Part shown: positions 15,348-57,499 of the stretch, in pieces | Layout of the letters: every line of letters starts with the position of its first letter | Numbering within the stretch: position 1 is the first letter of the stretch | From: Spirochaetaceae bacterium | Lineage (GTDB): Bacteria; Myxococcota_A; UBA9160; UBA4427 | Assembly (NCBI GenBank): GCA_020632655.1 | Contig: JACKFD010000002.1 | Location: 227,757 to 291,756 of the forward strand | Reading direction: 5' to 3' | Length of the DNA: 64,000 nt | The notes under the pieces: generated by a model | Seen by the model: the letters and a program-made list of their open reading frames with translations, nothing else | Database searches by the model: none | What the model was told of the DNA's origin: nothing | Translations under genes and position numbers: made by a program

Positions 15348-15676
15348 CCCTCGACTCCCGATCTCGATCTTGGTCCCGTACGAGGGAGCAGGATCCGTGC
15401 CGAGCGAATCCCGTCCATCGGAAGCACCGGATCGGTCGCGCCGCAGGGGACCGGGCGGTTCCCGCGACCAGAATCCGGGAGTCGGAGCGCTTCGACCGAA
15501 TGGCGTTTCTACAAACCGCGTTACCCGTCATGGCCCGGTGGGCGTCCTCTCGCAGGGCAAGAGGGCCGTCCGGCCGGCGGGCACGCGCCTTGCTCTGTCT
15601 ACTCCCTCCCGATGTCGTCGTCGGGGCCGGTGCGGACGCCGGTGCGCTCGAGGCGACTGGAGCAAGGGAGACATCC

Positions 15677-18076: not shown

Positions 18077-18486
18077 ACGGATGCTCCCTCGTTGCCGTCC
18101 ACCTCATCGGGCGAAGTCGAACGGGCGATTACGAACGCAAGAGAGACAGCAATGTTCATGCCTGGCGTGACGAAGTCCGAACGCGACGGCGCCGTCCGCA
18201 GGCGGGTCGGCGATGCGTTCGGAATCCCGCAGCGCTCCGAGGTGGCCACGGGGGGGCTGCAGATTGTAGAAACGATCGGACTCGCGACTCGGATGATGGA
18301 GCCCGACCGATCTCCTCGTCCTCGAGGCCCCGCCTCGAGCGAGCGGGGCAGGCCGCACCATCAGGTGTCATGGCTGTCCAGGCCGGAGGCCGGCGCGGCG
18401 ATGCTCCTTCACGGCATGTCGGCATGCGTCTTGCGTTTCCATGTCGCCAAGAACACGAGCGCAATGACGCGCTGCCTGAGAGGAAC

Positions 18487-20774: not shown

Positions 20775-23198
20775 TCATCGGTGCAGGTCGACGAACTCCT
20801 TTGCATCGAAGGCGTCGACGCGGACTGCTTCGTCCCGCGCCGCACGCGCCGAGGCGAGTCGGTCGACCTCCTCTTCCCTGAGGATTCCGGCCGCGACGGC
20901 CGCCTCGGCAAGCTCGATGCCCGGCGCCGGGTCGAGTCTGCCTTCGGCTACCGCCCGACGCAGCGCGGATTCGATGGCGAGGGCCGGTGTCGCCTCCTCG
21001 AGCGCGGCTTCTAGTCGGCCGAGGCCCGGTTCGTCGGCTCGAGGGAGGTAGATCGCCGAGGTGAGGGCTTCTCGGGCTTCTGCGTCTTCGAGCAGGGCGC
21101 GAGCGGCGTCCGACCCCATCCGATCGTCCGGTCCTCGCTCGCGCCGACCGAGTGGGAAGACCAGCGGCGCGAGCAGGTACGCCATCCATCGCGTCGGAAG
21201 ATTGCGGAGCACGCCCGAAAGAGCCCGATCGACTTCGGCGAGCGCCGTCTCGCAGGCCCAGACGACGAAGGCGCGCTCGCTCTCGGGCTCGCCCGCGTCC
21301 TGGAAGCGCTTCACGGTCGCGGATCCGATGTAGAGCCAGGCCAGGGCATCCGCGAGCCGGCCCGTGATCTTCTCGCGTCGCTTCAGACGACCGCCCAGCG
21401 TGGCTAGGGCGGCGTCGGAGACGAGCGCGAACGCGGCGCTGGATCGACCGAGACGTCGACGGAATCGCCGCGCGACGCCGCGCGAAGGCATCGTTCGTTC
21501 CCGGAGTCCGCTCGACAGGGCGAGCAACGGCGCGCGAACTGCGTTTCGGGCGACGAGACCCAGATGGCCGAAGAACGCACGGTCGAAGCGACCGACGTCG
21601 GCCGTGGCGATCGCCTCCATCTCTTCGAGCACATAGGGGTGGCAGCGGATCGCGCCCTGTCCGTAGATGATCATCGAGCGCGTGAGGATGTTCGCGCCCT
21701 CGACGGTGATTCCGATCGGGATCGTCGCGTAGATCCTCTCCAGGATGTTTCGCGGGCCACGCATGATGGCCGCTCCCGCGCGGATGTCCATCGCGTCGTT
21801 CACGATCGTGCGCATGGCGTCGGTGCAGTACGCCTTGGCGATGGCGGATAGCACCGCAGGCCGCTCGCCAGCATCGACCGTCGCGAGGGTGAGCGTGCGC
21901 GTCGCGTCGATCGCGTAGGTCAGGCCCGCAATGCGCGCGAGCGGCTCCTCGACTCCTTCGAAGCGACCGATCGGTGTGTCGAACTGCTCGCGCACCATGG
22001 CATAGGCGCTCGTGACGCGGGCGGCGACCTGCGCACCCGCGGTCGCGACGGAAGGCAGCGAGATGGATCGGCCGGCCGAGAGGCTCTCCATCAGCATCTT
22101 CCAACCCTGACCGGCTCCGGCCCGTCCTCCTATGATGGCGTCGACGGGGACGAAGACGTCCTGACCGGTGGTGGGGCCGTTCTGGAAGGGCACACCCATC
22201 GGATCGTGGCGCGTACCGATCTCGATGCCGGGGAGGTCGGCTGGCACGAGCGCGCACGTGATGCCGAGCTCCGGCTCTCCGCCGAGGAGACCGTCGGGAT
22301 CCCGGAGTCGGAAGGCCAGGCCGATCAACGTCGCGACCGGCGCGAGCGTGATGTAGCGCTTGTGCCAGCGCAGTCGGATGCCCAGGACCTCCTCGCCCCG
22401 CCAGGATCCGCGGCAGACGATCCCCTCGCTGTCGGTCGCCGCGGCATCGCTTCCAGCCTCGGGGCCCGTGAGCGCGAAGCACGGGATCTCCTCTCCGCGC
22501 GCGAGACGCGGGAGGTAGTGCGCGCACTGCTCTTTGGTCCCGTAGTGGAGCAGGAGCTCCGCGGGACCGAGCGAGTTCGGGACCATCACGGTCACCGCTG
22601 CCGTGACGCTCCGACTCGCAATCTTCGTGACGACGTCGGCGTGTGCACGCGCGGAGAATCCGAGTCCTCCGTAGGACTCCGGGATGATGAGACCGAAGAA
22701 GCGCTCGTGCCGCAGCGTGCTCCAGACCTTCTCGGGCAGGTCGCCGGCCTGGGAGATCTGCCATTCGTCGAGATCGCGACACAGGTCCTCGACGGGTCCG
22801 TCGAGGAAGGCCCGCTCGCGTGGCGTCGGACCCGCGGTCCGAAATGACGCAAGCCGGTTCCAATCCGGTCGTCCCGAGAAGAGATCTCGATCGAAGCCGA
22901 CCGTGCCAGCCTCGAGGGCGACTCGCTCCGTGTCGCCGAGCGTCGGGAGGGCGCGTGCGAAGCGGGGCATCAACCGCCGCGTGATCCACCTGCGTCGTAC
23001 GGACGGCACTCCGTAGACCAGGGCGGCCAGGGCGAGGAGTGCGGCGAGCACCGAAAGGACGCCCCAGGACTCGGGTGCGGCTGCGGCACCGGCGAGCAGC
23101 GCGGCCGCGCCGCCGACGACCCAGGCGAGATAGGCACGCCCGACGAAGGTGAGTGCCAGGAATGAACCCGCGGACAGAGCGATCCAGAAGAGAGTCAT
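20775..23198 (-). CDS. fadE: Long-chain acyl-CoA dehydrogenase, FadE type
   Basis: 807 aa. It has an N-terminal membrane-like segment followed by PTLGDTERVALEAGTVGFDRDLFSGRPDW, co-linear with E. coli FadE ([26 protein letters not shown]). ACAD core motifs follow. Confidence 0.9.
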   Translation of the reverse strand: MTLFWIALSAGSFLALTFVGRAYLAWVVGGAAALLAGAAAAPESWGVLSVLAALLALAALVYGVPSVRRRWITRRLMPRFARALPTLGDTERVALEAGTVGFDRDLFSGRPDWNRLASFRTAGPTPRERAFLDGPVEDLCRDLDEWQISQAGDLPEKVWSTLRHERFFGLIIPESYGGLGFSARAHADVVTKIASRSVTAAVTVMVPNSLGPAELLLHYGTKEQCAHYLPRLARGEEIPCFALTGPEAGSDAAATDSEGIVCRGSWRGEEVLGIRLRWHKRYITLAPVATLIGLAFRLRDPDGLLGGEPELGITCALVPADLPGIEIGTRHDPMGVPFQNGPTTGQDVFVPVDAIIGGRAGAGQGWKMLMESLSAGRSISLPSVATAGAQVAARVTSAYAMVREQFDTPIGRFEGVEEPLARIAGLTYAIDATRTLTLATVDAGERPAVLSAIAKAYCTDAMRTIVNDAMDIRAGAAIMRGPRNILERIYATIPIGITVEGANILTRSMIIYGQGAIRCHPYVLEEMEAIATADVGRFDRAFFGHLGLVARNAVRAPLLALSSGLRERTMPSRGVARRFRRRLGRSSAAFALVSDAALATLGGRLKRREKITGRLADALAWLYIGSATVKRFQDAGEPESERAFVVWACETALAEVDRALSGVLRNLPTRWMAYLLAPLVFPLGRRERGPDDRMGSDAARALLEDAEAREALTSAIYLPRADEPGLGRLEAALEEATPALAIESALRRAVAEGRLDPAPGIELAEAAVAAGILREEEVDRLASARAARDEAVRVDAFDAKEFVDLHR

Positions 23199-23371
23199 GA
23201 CATGTTCCTTTCGCGGCCGTCGAGGTGAGCGGACCCTCGCTCCGAGTCCGAGGACTCCTCGACGGGGGTCGGGGCCCGCTCGTAGGGACGCGCTTCGAGC
23301 GGCGGCTGGCGCGTTCTGTCGAGAGGCGGCTCGGCCGGCCTCTCGGCTCTACGGACGGGAGGCGCGTTGCG

Positions 23372-23399
23372 CAGTGGATCCGAGCCGCCGGATCCGCTG
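23372..23399 (-). terminator. Candidate terminator hairpin after the encapsulin gene
   Basis: cagtGGATCCG-agccgc-CGGATCCgctg forms an 11-bp stem with one G.U, 34 nt downstream of the encapsulin stop. There is no U-tract, which is common in GC-rich genomes. A second hairpin lies at 23320-23345 (CGAGAGGC...GCCTCTCG). Confidence 0.35.
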
Positions 23400-23432
23400 G
23401 CCGGGTGCCGAGTGGCGCGGACGACCGGGTGG

Positions 23433-24245
23433 CTAGACATCGGGCGGAAGGAGGGGAACGGCCGCCTCCGGCCCGGTCAGTTCGGCGGTGAAGCTCTCTT
23501 CCAGATAGAGGCGGATGTGATCGTCGTCGTGGCCGACGTATCCGATCGCCGCGTCGCGCCCGCAGACCATCCTGAAGTCGCCCCCGCGCAGGCTGGCGAC
23601 CACGCCACCACGGAGCGTCGCCGCCCAGATGACGTCGCGGTCGACCAGGCCACGCACGTGGCGGGCCATGGGATAGCCGCCCGCACCCGAAGCGCGAGCG
23701 AGTGCCTTGTGCGCCTCGGGTCCGAGAGCCACCACATAGGGCCCGGAGACGCCGGCGCGACGCAGCTGCTCGAGTGCCTCGGCGACCGCGTCGGCAAGGC
23801 GCGTGCCCTCGCCGGAGATCGCGACCCCCTCGTTCGTGGAGTCGGTGATCAGGCCCGGGATGTCGGCGTCGGCATATCCCTCGAAGATCGCGTCGTCCTC
23901 AGCGGCGGCGAATACGCGAGCGGCTTCGCGAAGTGGATCCAGATCGATGCGGGACGCGCCGCGATCGGCGCGCTCGATCGCCTGGCGCTCGAGCGTGAAC
24001 GGTACCCGGAGCTCGATCAACGGCCGGACGACCCGACGCCGAATCGTGGCGCGGGAGTCCACCTCGCACTCGAGCGACTCCGCTCGTCCGAGATCGAGAC
24101 CCGAATGGAGCCATCCGAACGGACCTTCGAAGTCCACCAGCCTCCGCGCGGCGAGACGCATCGTAAGCATGTCGCGAGCCTCGGATTCGATGCGTCTCCA
24201 GGCGGTGTCGCTGATCGGGGCGAGATGTCGATTCAATCCACCCAA
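23433..24245 (-). CDS. Encapsulin nanocompartment shell protein (family 1, linocin M18-like)
   Basis: (M)GGLNRHLAPISDTAWRRIESEARDMLTMRLAARRLVDFEGPFGW... matches the N-terminal signature of family-1 encapsulins (xxLxRxLAPISxxAWxxIExEA...AGRRVVDVxGPxGW). There is no ATG/GTG. TTG 24243-24245 lies 8 nt after GAGGAG. The alternative TTG 24234-24236 overlaps the EncFtn stop as TTGA. The length is about 267-270 aa. Confidence 0.9.
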   Translation of the reverse strand: MGGLNRHLAPISDTAWRRIESEARDMLTMRLAARRLVDFEGPFGWLHSGLDLGRAESLECEVDSRATIRRRVVRPLIELRVPFTLERQAIERADRGASRIDLDPLREAARVFAAAEDDAIFEGYADADIPGLITDSTNEGVAISGEGTRLADAVAEALEQLRRAGVSGPYVVALGPEAHKALARASGAGGYPMARHVRGLVDRDVIWAATLRGGVVASLRGGDFRMVCGRDAAIGYVGHDDDHIRLYLEESFTAELTGPEAAVPLLPPDV

Positions 24246-24643
24246 TCCGAGATCTCCTCGCCCGATCGTTCCCGACGCAGCCGGTCGATGCCGCGCAGGG
24301 CGCCGATGCCCAGATGGCGTTCTTCGCCAGTCTGATGATGATCTCCTCGGGCAGGCTCGCTCCGTGCGATCGGATCGGCTCGGAACAGGAAGCGGCGGAG
24401 GAGTCCGTCGAACTCGGGGTCGCGACGACGGATCCATTCGAGGAGCATGCACGCGTGCTCCTTCTCCTCGTCTCGATGGTTCGCGAGGACGCTTCTCAGA
24501 TCGTCGTCGGTCGTCGTGTGCAAACGGTCCTCGTAGGTATCCACTGCTACGAGCTCCTCGATCAACGACGTCAACGCGTGGTGCATGTCCTGGATCTCGG
24601 CCGACGGCCGGTCTCGGGATTCGTGTGTCGTGGCGGCTGTCAT
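24233..24643 (-). CDS. Encapsulated ferritin (EncFtn / ferritin-like cargo protein)
   Basis: ATG 24641-24643 lies 8 nt after AAGGAGG; 136 aa. DMHHALTSLIEELVAVDTYEDR...ANHRDEEKEHACMLLEWIRRRDP carries the EncFtn ferroxidase motifs. HLGIGALRG resembles the SLGIGSLKG cargo-loading peptide but is followed by 18 more residues. Confidence 0.9.
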   Translation of the reverse strand: MTAATTHESRDRPSAEIQDMHHALTSLIEELVAVDTYEDRLHTTTDDDLRSVLANHRDEEKEHACMLLEWIRRRDPEFDGLLRRFLFRADPIARSEPARGDHHQTGEERHLGIGALRGIDRLRRERSGEEISDWVD

Positions 24644-24676
24644 GGGGCCGAGCCTCCTTTCTCTTGCTCTTTCCGT

Positions 24677-24787
24677 CCCGGGGCTGCTTCGCACCGACGC
24701 ACGCGGGACCGAGCCCGGGGCTGCTTCGCACCGACGCACGCGGGACCGAGCCCGGGGCTGCTTCGCACCGACGCACGCGGGACCGAG
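24677..24787. repeat. Perfect 3 x 37-bp tandem repeat in the EncFtn/encapsulin leader
   Basis: The unit cccggggctgcttcgcaccgacgcacgcgggaccgag occurs at 24677-24713, 24714-24750 and 24751-24787 with no mismatch. The array ends 33 nt upstream of the EncFtn ATG. Each unit contains a CCCGGG palindrome. Confidence 0.97.
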
Positions 24788-25381
24788 AGAGGCGCGGATT
24801 CGGCTTCAGCCGCGGGTCGCGCCGGCTTTCTGACATCCCGTACTGGAAACTCAAGCAAGCGTCGTGCCGACGCGGCGCGAAGGGCCGAGGGCCGATTCGC
24901 CACGCCCCTTCCATTCGCAGAGGCGAGGCAGTTGGCGGCTCGCGGAAGACGACGAGCTCGGCGCTCCCATGTCTTCCACCTCGACGTCGTGCCAACATGA
25001 ATCGCGTCAGACGCCAGAGGGGCTCTATGGCGGAGCTGGCGGAGTGTCCGGCCGGGATCGGGACGATCGTGCTCCGTGCCGCGTCATGCGCCTCCACCTG
25101 ATTCCGCCGAGACGATGTCCGGGGTCTCACGGCGTACTGTCGCGACGAGACCACGCCGCGGCGCGTGGATCATTGTAGAAAGGGCGCCGCGACATCTCCG
25201 ACCGGCTCGACGCGCCCGGTCACCCCGACCGACTGTGCGTCGGCGACGGACGGGCGTCGGGCGCATGCCGAGCCCGTCGGCACCTTGTTGTGCCCCGATC
25301 GCTTCGCGAAGCTGTCGATCGACGTCGTCTGCGGATGCCCGTTTGGCGAGACGGTCCATCTACGCAGACGGGAGTAGCGCC

Positions 25382-26356
25382 GTGACCCTGGCGAGTGCCT
25401 ATCGCTATCCGTTCCCGCCCTATCCAACCGGCTGGTACGTCGTCGCCGCGTCGAGCGAGCTCCCGTCGCGAGGAGTTCTGCCGCTTCGTTATTTCGGACG
25501 CGACCTCGTGCTGTTCCGAGCGGAGAGCGGCCGTGCCGTACTGGTCGACGCTCATTGTCCGCACATGGGCGCGCATCTCGGGCACGGCGGATTCGTCGAG
25601 GGGGAGGGGATCCGCTGCCCCTTCCATCAATGGCGCTTCGGGTGCGATGGGCGCGTCGAAGACGTTCCGTACCAGACCCGCGGCGCGTTGCCCGTCGAGT
25701 CGCTCGCCTGCTGGCCGGTCGAGGAGCAGAGCGGCGTCGTACTGGCACATTGGAGCGACGGCGGCCGATCGCCCAGCTGGCGCATGCCGGCGATCACCGA
25801 GTTCGGTCGTCCGGGCTGGGTCGGCTGGCAGACCTTCCGCTGGCAGATCCACATGCATACCCAGGAGCTCGCAGAAAACGTCCCCGACATGCCGCATTTC
25901 CGTTACGTCCATCGCGTTCCAGCGCCGCCCGAAGCCGAGGTGAAGACTTCGGGCCACGTCTACCGGCAGGAGACGATCGGGCGCGGGGCCGACGGCGGGA
26001 TCGTCTGGCGGACGCAGCAGACGCTCTTCGGGCTCGGGCTCATCGTGCTGCGTACGCCCGGACCCATCCCGAATGTCTCGCTGAACGCGATCACGCCGAT
26101 CGACGAGGAGACGGTCGACCTGCGGGTGATGTACGTCGTCGAAGAAGGCGGCGATGCCACGACGCTCTCGCCGGCGGCGAGTGCGATGCTCGAGGCCGTT
26201 GCGAGCACGATCGGAGACGACGTCCCGATCTGGGAGCACAAGGTCTATCGCGAGAAGCCGTCCCTCGTACCGGGGGACGGCCCGATCGCGACGTTGCGGA
26301 AGTGGGCGCGGCAGTTCTACGAGAGCGGGGCCGAGGGCGCGCCCGACCGCGACTAG
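25382..26356 (+). CDS. Rieske [2Fe-2S] domain oxygenase-like protein (KshA-like architecture)
   Basis: GTG 25382 follows GGGAG. YPFPPYPTGWYVVAASSEL...CPHMGAHLGHGG...IRCPFHQWRF carries the CxH...CxxH Rieske motif. The C-terminal half is a catalytic-like domain. The start is uncertain. Confidence 0.8.
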   Translation: MTLASAYRYPFPPYPTGWYVVAASSELPSRGVLPLRYFGRDLVLFRAESGRAVLVDAHCPHMGAHLGHGGFVEGEGIRCPFHQWRFGCDGRVEDVPYQTRGALPVESLACWPVEEQSGVVLAHWSDGGRSPSWRMPAITEFGRPGWVGWQTFRWQIHMHTQELAENVPDMPHFRYVHRVPAPPEAEVKTSGHVYRQETIGRGADGGIVWRTQQTLFGLGLIVLRTPGPIPNVSLNAITPIDEETVDLRVMYVVEEGGDATTLSPAASAMLEAVASTIGDDVPIWEHKVYREKPSLVPGDGPIATLRKWARQFYESGAEGAPDRD

Positions 26357-27072
26357 CCGCGGCGGCCCGCGGATCCCGCTCGAACGGGCTGGCGTCCGGA
26401 TGGACGCGAGAGGGCCTGGCGCCGGGCGAAACGAGATGCGGCGACGAGTCCGGCGACGAGCGCCGCGAGGGCCGGGGCGGAGAGCGCGGGGACCGAGGGC
26501 GTCGCGACCGGCGTGAATTCGAGGTTGTCGAGCAGCGTCCCCTCCATGATGGGCGTGTTGGGTTGGAAGACCTCGATGCGTCGGATCAGCGGAGCGCTCA
26601 CGAAGAGATCCACGGGATTCCCGGTTCCGCTTCCCGCGCCGGTGCCGGAGTCGCTCGCAACCAGCGTCCCGGCCGTCGCATCGTCGTACGCGTTCACCCG
26701 GATGCCCGCACTCCCCACGTCCATCGCCCGCAGGCTCACCGACGAGACGGGCGGCTCGAAGCGGGCCGCGATCGGGTCGGATTCGTGCAGGATCGTGCTC
26801 GACGTCGAATGGATCACGACGTAGGGCAGTGTCGAGCCCAGATGATCGTCGACGCCATCGAAGGGCGGACCCAGCGCATCCGCCCAGCGGGCATGCGAGA
26901 AGGTGACGCCCAGCGTCGAGTAGAAGTCGTCGATGGTCTGGCCGGGCGTGCCGTCGTCGAAATCGATCGAGACGGTCTGCGCAGCAATCGGCGAGGCCGC
27001 GACGAGGGGCGGGAGCAGGGCGAGGGTGGCGAAACGGACGCGGGCAGCGGTGCAGAGGCGCGAGTGCAGCAT
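26353..27072 (-). CDS. Secreted protein with IPTL-CTERM-like (VPALS) C-terminal anchor
   Basis: 239 aa. The signal peptide is FATLALLPPLVAASPIAAQ. The C-terminus is TPSVPALSAPALAALVAGLVAASRFARRQ (motif + TM + basic). Its stop shares the tetranucleotide CTAG (26353-26356) with the stop of the convergent Rieske gene. Confidence 0.65.
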   Translation of the reverse strand: MLHSRLCTAARVRFATLALLPPLVAASPIAAQTVSIDFDDGTPGQTIDDFYSTLGVTFSHARWADALGPPFDGVDDHLGSTLPYVVIHSTSSTILHESDPIAARFEPPVSSVSLRAMDVGSAGIRVNAYDDATAGTLVASDSGTGAGSGTGNPVDLFVSAPLIRRIEVFQPNTPIMEGTLLDNLEFTPVATPSVPALSAPALAALVAGLVAASRFARRQALSRPSGRQPVRAGSAGRRG

Positions 27073-32984: not shown

Positions 32985-33332
32985 ATGGGCACGAGCGAGA
33001 CAGGGGCGAGGCTGCCCGCTGAGTTCTCCGCCCTCGAGCGATGGGCGGACGAGTGGATCCTGCCGACCCTCGAGGATCGGCTCCAGAAGCGACTCGTGAC
33101 GCCCATGAAGGAGCTCCAGGCCTTCTACGACGACGTCTTTCCCGTTGCCGAGGCGGCCATGAAGTATCTCGATGGATTCCAGATCGACGATCTGCCCGAG
33201 CCGGCGATGAATCTGATGAACCTGCTCTACTCGCTGAGCTGTGTGTCGGTCGCGACGGATGTATTCGGAACCCAGCGGGATCCGAATACGGGCGCGACCT
33301 GGATCTACGAGGTCTCGGAGCCGCCTTTCTAG
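32985..33332 (+). CDS. Hypothetical 115-aa protein immediately downstream of the oxygenase alpha subunit
   Basis: ATG 32985 lies 2 nt after the alpha-subunit TAG. Composition is protein-like and acidic (EFSALERWADEWILPTLEDRLQKRL...). It does not resemble an NTF2-type beta subunit. Confidence 0.55.
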   Translation: MGTSETGARLPAEFSALERWADEWILPTLEDRLQKRLVTPMKELQAFYDDVFPVAEAAMKYLDGFQIDDLPEPAMNLMNLLYSLSCVSVATDVFGTQRDPNTGATWIYEVSEPPF

Positions 33333-33366
33333 GGTCGGCACGGCGGGCTAGGGTCGGCACGGCGGG
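33329..33366. repeat. Perfect 2 x 19-bp tandem duplication (ctagggtcggcacggcggg)
   Basis: Read directly: 33329-33347 = 33348-33366. The first unit contains the stop of the 115-aa ORF. The duplication lies 23 nt upstream of the LLM gene ATG. Confidence 0.95.
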
Positions 33367-40227: not shown

Positions 40228-40505
40228 CGGATGTCGGATCTGCCTCGGGGCCCCCCTCGGTCGGGGCCACCGGAAGGCTCGTTGCCGTGGCCTCGGACGA
40301 CGGTCGCCTCGGGCGCTGGCGGCCCGCGGACGGCACGGAGTCCTTCCGGGACCCGCGCGAAGACCGGGGCGCGAGTCGGGAATCGGCGTGGGGAGCGGAG
40401 CGGGATCCGACCGACGTCCGCCATTCGGTCCTACGCCCCGACTCGGGTCCTACGCCTCGACTCTGATCGGTGGCAAGCCTGCGCGGACGCGGCGAAGTCT
40501 CCCGA

Positions 40506-42691: not shown

Positions 42692-44326
42692 ATGGAATGG
42701 GAAATTGGATCGATGAGGAGTTGCGCGCTCGTGTGGAATCTTCGTTCTCTATATCTGGTCAACCTGTTCCTTCTGATGGCACCGCGTCTCGCTCGCGCCG
42801 GCTGGGGCGACGAACGATGGGGTGAGCTGGTCTGGTCGGGCGCGGCACCCGAGGTGCCCCTCCTTTTGTCGCCGTGGCTGCAGGGATTCCTGACGGCGCT
42901 GCTCCTGATGACGTCTCTCCTGGTCCTCCGACGTCGGCCGCGTATGGCCGCCTGGCTGATCGTCGCCGCCATCGTCGCTCCCATCGCGGTCGGTGCTGCT
43001 CAGATCGCATCGCTGCCGTACTCGTTCGTAAACGGATCGATCGCCGATGCGAACGAGGTGAACGCCGACTTCGGCGTACTCGTTGCCGAGTCGAACGGAC
43101 AGGACCTGCGACTGGAGCTCCTCGAAGACACGACGGCTCTTCACGACTCGCGTCTCGGGATCCTCGAGGCGCTCGATCCCGGCGACATCACGGGCGTGGC
43201 GGCTGGCTCGGGACTCCTGGGCGGAGGCACCCTGGGCGACGTCTCGCTCAGTGTGGACACCAGCTATACGCAGCGAAGAGTCGTCGGGACCTGTCCAGCC
43301 GGACAATCCATTCGCGCGATCGACCCGGTCGGCGCCGTGAGCTGCGAGCCCGACGACGTCGGAATCAGCGCGGCCGCGGGCGACGCGAGCTACGTCAACG
43401 TCACCGGCGACACGATCACGGGGGTCCTCACGATCAACGGGACGGCGGCCGTCCGGCCCGGAGTGGGCGGAGGCTTCGAGATCGTGGACTGGGGGCCCGG
43501 AAGCGGCGCGGCGGCCGGAACCCAGGTCATCGCACTCGCCGAGGGGCAGAACGCGCAGCCGCAGATCCGCTTCCAATCGGACGCGGGAGGCGGATACATG
43601 GACGTCGGCTCGAGCGCCGGAGGCGGATTCGTCATCGAATCGAACGACATGCCGAGATTCACCGTCAGCGCCGGGGGAGCCGTCTGGGGTGAAGCCGGCG
43701 GAAGCTTCCAGACGCTCGTATCGAGCGAGTGGGTCGGGGTCGGGACCTCGCTCACGACTGGCGATTGGGTCGGGGTCGGAACCTCGCTCACGACCGGTGA
43801 GTGGCTCGGCGTGGGGACCGACCTCTACGTGGGCGGCACCTCGAACCTCGCCAACGTCTACTCCACGGGGGAGGTCAGCGCCGCGGCCGTGCGCATCCGC
43901 GGCGGCGCCGACATCGCGGAGCCCTTCGATTTCACCGGCGAGGAATCGATCGCGCCGGGGATGGTGGTCTCGATCGACCCTGCTGTGCCGGGTCGTCTGC
44001 GACGATCGAGCGATCCCTACGATTCGAAGGTGGCCGGCATCGTGAGCGGGGCGGGCGGCGTGAACCCTGGTCTCACCCTCACACAAGAGGGAACGATCGC
44101 GGACGGCGATCACGCAGTGGCACTGACGGGACGTGTCTACGCCTGGGTCGACGCCGACGCGAATGGAGCCATCCGCCCTGGCGACCTGCTGACGACGTCG
44201 TCGCGGCCCGGCCATGCCATGCGTGCGAGCGATCCCGCCCGGAGTCACGGCGCCGTGCTGGGCAAGGCGATGGGCCGCCTCGATGCGGGGCAGGGTCTCG
44301 TCTTGACGCTGGTGAATCTGCAATGA
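42692..44326 (+). CDS. Fibre-like surface protein (tail-fibre-like N-terminal/coiled region, conserved C-terminal globular module)
   Basis: The start is ambiguous (ATG 42692, 42776 or 42944; the last gives the signal-like MAAWLIVAAIVAPIAVGAAQIA). Features are SFVNGSIADANEVNADF, a heptad-like stretch, GTCPAGQSIRAIDPVGAVSC, three WVGVGTSLTTG-type repeats, and the C-terminus ...GADIAEPFD...YDSKVAGIVSGAGGVNPG...VALTGRVY...PGDLLTTSSRPGHAMRA...GAVLGKAM...LVNLQ. Confidence 0.75.
   Translation: MEWEIGSMRSCALVWNLRSLYLVNLFLLMAPRLARAGWGDERWGELVWSGAAPEVPLLLSPWLQGFLTALLLMTSLLVLRRRPRMAAWLIVAAIVAPIAVGAAQIASLPYSFVNGSIADANEVNADFGVLVAESNGQDLRLELLEDTTALHDSRLGILEALDPGDITGVAAGSGLLGGGTLGDVSLSVDTSYTQRRVVGTCPAGQSIRAIDPVGAVSCEPDDVGISAAAGDASYVNVTGDTITGVLTINGTAAVRPGVGGGFEIVDWGPGSGAAAGTQVIALAEGQNAQPQIRFQSDAGGGYMDVGSSAGGGFVIESNDMPRFTVSAGGAVWGEAGGSFQTLVSSEWVGVGTSLTTGDWVGVGTSLTTGEWLGVGTDLYVGGTSNLANVYSTGEVSAAAVRIRGGADIAEPFDFTGEESIAPGMVVSIDPAVPGRLRRSSDPYDSKVAGIVSGAGGVNPGLTLTQEGTIADGDHAVALTGRVYAWVDADANGAIRPGDLLTTSSRPGHAMRASDPARSHGAVLGKAMGRLDAGQGLVLTLVNLQ
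43737..43808 (+). repeat. 2 x 36-nt in-frame coding repeat (EWVGVGTSLTTG / DWVGVGTSLTTG), with a degenerate third unit following
   Basis: Read directly inside the fibre-like gene. The two units differ at a few synonymous or conservative positions. Confidence 0.85.
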
Positions 44327-57196: not shown

Positions 57197-57499
57197 GCGA
57201 ATGGCTGTGCCGTGCGATGCACGGCGACCTGAGGGCCGGCGGAGGCTAGCAGACTCCGGGCGCGCGAGCCTCGGGGGAGCGCCGCTTCCTCGAAGATCCG
57301 GCCGCCGACCCGATCCTCCGGCCCCGGTCGCCCGTCCGCCCCGCCCGTCTGCCTCCTGCGCGGGCAGCGCGAGTCCCGGTCTGCACGGCAGCCCGACCGA
57401 ATCGCGCTGACCGCGACCCGAGCGGGTCTTCCCCGGCGCGACGCGCGCGCAATCGACCTCGGCATGGCCCTTGCTCTCTTCGCGGTAGGGGACGGGGAG

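Follow-up and report, generated by a model that had tools for sequence, protein, structure and literature searches.

The repeat described here, from an uncultured Myxococcota bacterium, lies ahead of an operon for an encapsulated ferritin (EncFtn) and a family 1 encapsulin shell, and was studied in a window that comprises the whole 64-kb stretch of DNA that was analysed (Table 1). The encapsulin gene begins at TTG 24245 or TTG 24236, overlapping the EncFtn stop codon, and its product is 100% identical to a protein named 'family 1 encapsulin nanocompartment shell protein [Myxococcota bacterium]'. At the orthologous loci L013, L014 and L021 the encapsulin gene is followed by a gene for an Fe/Mn superoxide dismutase (SOD), often with an acyl-CoA dehydrogenase gene next, and at L020 the SOD gene lies upstream; in the window the SOD gene is missing (23198-23433) and the acyl-CoA dehydrogenase gene stands directly after encapsulin. 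On the other side of the operon a divergent gene for a Rieske/KshA-like oxygenase bounds the intergenic region, and this gene is outside the unit of function to which the repeat belongs. Frequent divergent neighbours at the orthologous loci are Usp, CsbD and DUF1328 stress genes. The intergenic region measures 738 bp, as had been stated in an earlier reading made from the sequence only, when the Rieske gene is taken to start at GTG 25382, and 621 bp when it is taken to start at ATG 25265, the start called in L001.

Table 1. Coordinates of features at the EncFtn-encapsulin locus in the window, and of the sigma-54 motif at orthologous loci
Feature	Position	Strand	Remarks
Acyl-CoA dehydrogenase	20775-23198	-	
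Family 1 encapsulin shell	23433-24245	-	Pfam Linocin_M18 7.8e-79
EncFtn (encapsulated ferritin), 136 aa	24233-24643	-	Pfam EncFtn-like 1.9e-30; ATG 24643
Spacer between array and start codon	24644-24676	-	33 nt; contains Shine-Dalgarno AAGGAGG at 24654-24660
37-bp array units	24677-24713, 24714-24750, 24751-24787	-	head-to-tail, abutting, identical
Unique leader DNA, promoter to array	24788-24853	-	local GGCGCG...CGCGCC hairpin in predicted fold
Sigma-54 type -24/-12 promoter, GGCACGACGCTTGCT	24854-24868	-	GGCACG-N4-TTGCT; 67 nt beyond distal array end
Rieske/KshA-like oxygenase, divergent	25382-26356 (alternative start ATG 25265)	+	Pfam Rieske 2.2e-20, KshA_C 1.1e-35
Orthologue sigma-54 motif	L013 2553-2567; L014 1540-1554; L015 1060-1074; L016 2395-2409	+	
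Orthologue sigma-54 motif	L020 2022-2036; L022 2052-2066; L023 2038-2052	+	

TRF returned the array at 24677-24787 with a period of 37, 3.0 copies, 100% matches and a score of 222, and it is the only perfect array with at least three copies in the 64-kb window. It consists of three exact copies of CCCGGGGCTGCTTCGCACCGACGCACGCGGGACCGAG, the unit being CTCGGTCCCGCGTGCGTCGGTGCGAAGCAGCCCCGGG on the operon strand. The count is exactly 3.0, with the period broken by flanking bases at both ends; on the distal flank the next 15 nt match the unit at 9 of 15 positions by hand count. Each unit contains CCCGGG and CGCAC-CGA-CGCAC, which on the operon strand is GTGCG-N3-GTGCG. TRF and a check of the sequence agree with the sequence-only reading that three perfect, spacer-free 37-bp units end 33 nt before the EncFtn start codon (ATG, 24643-24641), each with CCCGGG and CGCAC-N3-CGCAC. 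The array has the form of a VNTR, in that its 37-bp copies run head-to-tail outside the EncFtn coding region as set by orthologue alignment. Other tandem repeats in the window are a 36-bp repeat of 2.6 copies at 43725-43819 (84% matches), which lies within a 552-aa ORF and is therefore coding, and two 19-bp duplications at 33329-33366 and 40427-40463; none of them resembles the 37-mer.

The array could itself be coding sequence, either as a 32-aa extension of EncFtn or as a small ORF. The sequence-only reading had pointed to an in-frame GTG, which is indeed present at 24739; the ORF at 24233-24739 is open and in frame (168 aa as against 136 aa), and 3 x 37 = 111 keeps the reading frame. However, in six of the eight EncFtn orthologues the first residue aligns with ATG 24643, and the extension has no counterpart in any of the eight; it is unsupported because these orthologue starts align with the downstream ATG. 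A strong AAGGAGG Shine-Dalgarno (SD) sequence is placed 10 nt upstream of ATG 24643. The 37-nt unit has a length not divisible by 3 and would be translated in a different frame each time; at 69% GC, moreover, it is common for every strand to have open frames. The extension from GTG 24739, contradicted by the orthologue alignment, was rejected.

The sigma-54 promoter and the leader

Beyond the distal end of the array, cGGCACGacgcTTGCT at 24854-24868 (-) is a near-consensus sigma-54 -24/-12 promoter oriented toward EncFtn. Its GG and GC doublets are exactly 10 nt apart, and the whole is TGGCAC-N5-TTGCW-like. The pattern GGCAYG-N4-TTGCT occurs four times in the 64-kb window, where 0.00 occurrences are expected. 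Eight orthologous loci, with encapsulins 66-74% identical, were fetched, and in seven of them the exact pattern stands upstream of EncFtn (Table 1), the eighth (L021) having a weaker variant; by chance it is expected about 2e-4 times per 400-nt upstream region. The outgroup loci L011 and L012, of alphaproteobacterial and actinomycete origin, lack the pattern. A generic sigma-70 scan of 24200-25600 gave no promoter-like site, and the two terminator-like matches in or near the array were on the wrong strand or unrelated.

From the usual spacing to the -12 element, transcription would start near 24843, and the array would then occupy about +57 to +167 of a leader of some 200 nt. Because the conserved sigma-54 promoter lies upstream of it, the array is most likely 5'-UTR DNA, and, judged by this promoter motif, it is probably within the transcribed leader. 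The placing of the array between the operon and its promoter in the sequence-only reading therefore stands, the conserved promoter being found past the distal array end. Conservation of a canonical sigma-54 promoter would also imply that production of the nanocompartment is activator-dependent and signal-gated. Full-text searches found no literature linking encapsulin with sigma-54, sigma54, RpoN or enhancer-binding protein, and the link is for this reason a testable lead on encapsulin regulation. A consistent sigma-54 promoter before the EncFtn-encapsulin operon in this Myxococcota clade is a more useful by-product of the analysis than the repeat.

Three more exact sigma-54 matches in the window, at 15580-15594 (+), 18148-18162 (-) and 57461-57475 (+), each stand ahead of an ORF on the same strand. 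They precede a 76-aa Cys-rich ORF with no Pfam match, a fusion protein of isochorismatase and amino-acid kinase, and a 474-aa protein with no Pfam match followed by two flavin oxidoreductases. An AT-rich motif, TTTCTACAA, occurs exactly three times in the window, at 25173-25181 (-), 15506-15514 (+) and 18264-18272 (-), and in each case a sigma-54 promoter of the same strand follows 74-313 nt downstream. In the orthologues the motif is found at L014 1249, L015 838, L016 2050 and L020 1967, while L022 and L023 have a palindromic form, TTTGTACAAA; of the 8-mers that the orthologous EncFtn upstream regions have in common, TTCTACAA ranks first. The motif may be a site for an activator or of the IHF type, or else a box resembling a -10 element. 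At 24944-24977 there is an inverted repeat, GGAAGAC-N20-GTCTTCC, that encloses the palindrome CGAGCTCG. The centre of the repeat is some 118 bp upstream of the presumed start, a position usual for an enhancer-binding-protein site, for which the repeat is a candidate. A repeat of the -24 region, GTTGGCACGACG, lies 125 bp upstream of it, at about 24985-24996.

Copies in relatives, strains and other DNA

The array is absent in relatives. No comparable tandem array was seen in any of five orthologue leaders (L013, L015 and L016 by TRF, L014 and L022 by direct reading), and when the unit was aligned by Smith-Waterman with seven orthologue leaders and with the distal flank in the window itself, no score exceeded those of shuffles. 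Derivation of the unit from an ancestral leader was rejected, similarity being not above shuffles and an apparent resemblance in the L015 leader being due to chance. The distance from the promoter GG to the ATG is 225 nt here as against 72-165 nt in the orthologues; a one-unit version of the leader would measure 151 nt, within the orthologue range. The encapsulin search found no protein between 100% and 74% identity, and a scan of genome contigs for encapsulin gave, among the matches listed, only distant relatives (46% and 39% identity). By these sequence comparisons the array is derived and species-specific, with the lineage specificity of a VNTR. The leader of L016, from another Myxococcota MAG, has a repeat of its own at 2465-2512, between the sigma-54 promoter and the SD; it is purine-rich and degenerate, with a period of 10-13 and about 2.5 copies, and is unrelated to the 37-mer. 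It follows that duplications can be accommodated in this part of the leader, and in more than one lineage.

Of the public contigs, 24 encode the identical EncFtn protein, and three of these span the array. L001 (GCA_020430525.1) has three perfect units, and L003 (JGI 3300010349) has three perfect units together with the distal flank. L002 (GCA_041389465.1, a 1.47-Mb contig) also has three units, but the distal, promoter-distal unit differs by two G>A changes and has GCATGCGTCGATGCG in place of GCGTGCGTCGGTGCG. Both GTGCG half-repeats of this unit (L002 2857-2893, equal to window 24751-24787) are changed at the same position, from GTGCGTCGGTGCG to ATGCGTCGATGCG, which looks like a templated or converted event rather than two independent hits. 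Counting the window, the copy number is three in four of four spanning assemblies, all of them consensus assemblies of near-clonal strains, and the units are perfectly identical in three of the four. The sequence-only reading had considered that the repeat might be an artefact, with only one unit real; this does not apply, as three copies are also found in three additional, independent assemblies that span the array, and one of these has a variant copy; an assembly artefact is thereby excluded. Coding sequence or artefact, taken as a single alternative, has next to no chance of being the right account of the array. Further spanning contigs were sought from the Rieske side, where the 363-aa product was found only on the contig of L001 and the 324-aa versions were not on record.

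Identity of the strains to the window is 98.6-99.98%, the figure for the spanning strains being 99.4-99.98% over 3.5-6.4 kb, and divergence is about 0.1% outside two recombination-like tracts. When the dense clusters at 26125-26384 and 26998-27055 are left out, 21233-26124 has only 11 polymorphic sites that set the strains apart from the window, and four of these (24674, 24714, 24768 and 24776) are in the array or 3 nt from it (binomial P = 8.5e-5). At 24674, read on the operon strand, the window has G and L002, L003 and L010 have A. The remaining 600 bp or so of intergenic DNA is invariant in L002 and L018, in both of which the leader segment 24788-24853 is identical. Since four of the 11 sites cluster there, conservation within the region is lowest, rather than highest, in the array. 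Sequence constraint on it is weak, though the copy number stayed at three. Perfect identity of the copies had been offered as a sign of selection, but polymorphism is enriched rather than depleted in the array. As for the two dense clusters, which are differences between the window and L002 and L018, the first is at the 3' end of the Rieske gene and the second is the N-terminal, signal-peptide-like part of a hypothetical gene at 26353-27072 (-), with nearly identical flanks. Their appearance is that of a recombination tract, or else of a secreted protein that evolves fast.

In other samples, at least seven short-read contigs begin within the array, 16-54 nt in, as would be usual for de Bruijn assemblers at tandem repeats. 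These breaks bear on the idea of a contingency locus, in which a copy-number-tunable repeat in the leader or promoter, by expansion and contraction of its units, would alter the length or structure of the leader and in this way set the level of the iron-storage nanocompartment. The array is placed between promoter and SD, as in the M. tuberculosis and H. influenzae systems discussed below; perfect identity of the units would make slippage easy; and, with short-read assemblers breaking here in at least seven samples, variation could be hidden. The breaks are no proof of heterogeneity, however, because breaks at k-1 = 30 nt would be expected for any tandem repeat, and all four spanning assemblies have exactly three units. 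Partition-function calculations over 0-6 units gave predicted unpaired probabilities of 0.59-0.77 for the SD and 0.54-0.57 for the translation initiation region (TIR), with no trend for SD, AUG or TIR, so that accessibility for initiation is predicted to be independent of unit number. An effect of copy number on translation initiation was rejected on these flat predictions. The copy-number-variable switch proposed in the sequence-only reading thus fares poorly against both the constant three copies and the predicted SD accessibility, and a tunable repeat appears doubtful.

Searches for the 37-mer elsewhere covered the 64-kb window, one metagenome collection and viral contigs, and in these data it is specific to this locus. 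With up to three mismatches allowed, the unit gave exactly three hits in the 64 kb, all of them in the array, as against none in 100 shuffles. A blastn-short comparison of the unit with the window found, outside the array, only chance matches of at most 13 nt. When the JGI metagenome collection was searched with a degenerate core of 24 nt, two contigs were returned, both from one sample and both from this locus (L019 its EncFtn side and L018 its Rieske side), and viral contigs gave no match. A dispersed REP/MITE-like element was accordingly rejected, with copies at this locus only; dispersal as a generic REP-like element, which the sequence-only reading had weighed, does not apply to the window, the metagenome collection or the viral contigs.

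RNA structure and DNA motifs of the unit

Each unit is predicted to be able to form a small hairpin, UGCGUCG-GUG-CGAAGCA, and three such hairpins in the leader might act at the RNA level, by binding an RNA-binding protein or sRNA or by protecting or destabilising the mRNA. A one-unit reconstruction with native flanks folds into a hairpin of -23.6 kcal/mol (z = -1.6, a stability reached by 12 of 200 shuffles), a weak hint that the segment later duplicated could originally have belonged to a stem-loop of the leader. By our own mapping, the three substitutions of L002 fall outside the predicted stems, although not to a significant degree. On the other hand, the array shows no excess of RNA structure. 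Compared with dinucleotide shuffles it folds less stably with one, two and three units (z = +1.0, +1.7 and +1.8), and so does the whole leader (z = +1.68). An Rfam scan of 24000-25600 gave best E-values of 0.29-6, all sub-threshold and none overlapping the array, and no Rfam family matched. The unit is conserved in none of the seven orthologue leaders tested, and predicted SD accessibility is unaffected by it. A structured leader was rejected, folds of the leader on both strands and with 1-3 units being no better than shuffles. A known cis-regulatory RNA was also rejected, in view of the missing Rfam match and the folding z of +1.0 to +1.8. The structured 5' UTR suggested in the sequence-only reading is not borne out by an array that folds worse than shuffles at every unit number from one to three, and a cis element acting through the RNA is very unlikely. 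On the template strand the G4Hunter maximum in the array was 0.52, where the usual threshold for a G-quadruplex is at least 1.2.

At the DNA level, the unit junctions form an 11-bp palindrome, AGCCCCGGGCT, which is present twice in the array. Together with the three copies of GTGCG-N3-GTGCG, it is unique to the array within the window, and the two motifs could be iterated regulator sites downstream of the sigma-54 promoter, serving as a repressor roadblock or as an enhancer for three enhancer-binding-protein dimers. The centre of the array would be at about +112, roughly 125-135 bp from the -24/-12 elements, and sigma-54 promoters of Caulobacter flagellar genes are known to have enhancer elements on the downstream side. 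An NtrC-type (Sigma54_activat) activator gene lies 2.8 kb from the related locus L022. In the 64-kb window, however, no GAFTGA-type activator is encoded, GAFTGA, ELFGH or similar activator motifs being found in no frame, and no regulator gene adjoining the array was found. Neither motif recurs at the window's three other sigma-54 promoter regions, and both are absent from all orthologous EncFtn upstream regulatory regions and from the orthologue leaders, which are too short for a comparable element. Because a spacing of 37 bp amounts to 3.5 helical turns, successive sites would face opposite sides of the helix. Substitutions have accumulated in the array, and the distal unit of L002 has both GTGCG half-sites changed. 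For the iterated operator sites named in the sequence-only reading, the 11-bp palindrome at the two unit junctions was the only observation in favour. Iterated regulator sites are, on balance, quite unlikely.

A broader proposition is that the 37-nt triplication is a functional dosage element of the sigma-54-controlled encapsulin operon, acting through regulator sites or through change of copy number by slippage. If true, it would set the amount of the iron-storage nanocompartment and would be the first cis-regulatory device described for an encapsulin operon, but we hold it to be unlikely. Nothing found argues for an expression-tuning switch, a protein-binding array or an RNA-level cis element, and by its sequence distribution the array is not a conserved cis-regulatory element.

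Origin of the array and comparison with known repeats

The explanation that we favour, with a confidence somewhat better than even, is that the array is an ordinary, lineage-specific, near-neutral minisatellite in the leader of a sigma-54-driven EncFtn-encapsulin operon, and no dedicated regulatory device. In the ancestor of a single Myxococcota species of wastewater and digester metagenomes, a 37-nt piece of the 5' leader would have been tandemly duplicated twice, presumably through slippage during replication or through unequal recombination. The sigma-54 promoter at 24854-24868 would drive the operon, and the array, lying downstream of the start, would be transcribed with the leader. Its main effect would be to make the leader longer by 74 nt and to supply a modest hairpin two more times; mRNA stability and translation would probably be affected little, if at all.

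Several observations count against a neutral minisatellite. The copy number is three in every spanning assembly, where a free-running array might vary, although this is tempered by the strains being nearly clonal and by assemblies reporting the majority allele only. Youth is one explanation for the identity of the units, but homogenisation or selection could also account for it. The junction palindrome could be a protein-binding site, and the array centre is at a distance from the -24/-12 elements that is typical of an enhancer-binding protein, but on the downstream side. As a near-neutral minisatellite, the repeat would itself be of little import, being a strain marker and a predictable breakpoint of short-read assemblies. 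It also provides a natural leader-length variant for asking whether leader length affects expression from a sigma-54 promoter.

Comparison with known systems points to likenesses and differences in each case. Like REP/BIME or MITE-like repeats, the array is GC-rich and intergenic, with some hairpin potential; unlike these, which have tens to hundreds of dispersed copies, the 37-mer was found at this locus only. The Caulobacter ftr elements are conserved, experimentally defined activator sites of flagellar sigma-54 promoters. The locus shares with them a sigma-54 promoter that would have repeated DNA about 100 bp downstream of its start, but the 37-bp unit is conserved in no orthologue.

Tandem repeats in M. 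tuberculosis promoters (minisatellite VNTRs), such as those upstream of lpdA, efpA, glpD2 and dop, vary in copy number between and within strains, and effects on promoter strength have been reported (PMC12817950). The array resembles them in having head-to-tail units of tens of bp in non-coding DNA, at a stress-related gene of a GC-rich bacterium, and in being poorly resolved by short-read assembly. It differs in standing at three copies in four of four spanning assemblies, and in lying downstream of the sigma-54 promoter, where it duplicates no promoter elements. In H. influenzae, hmw1A and hmw2A have hypervariable 7-bp upstream tandem repeats of 9-28 copies, and more repeats give less transcript of a surface adhesin that is under immune selection (PMC2424069, PMC8262952). 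The unit here is 37 bp, in three copies and with no copy-number variation seen among four assemblies, unlike those of hmw1A and hmw2A. Like them, however, the array is placed between promoter and coding region, and the hmw repeats are a model for the way in which the length of a leader or promoter could tune output.
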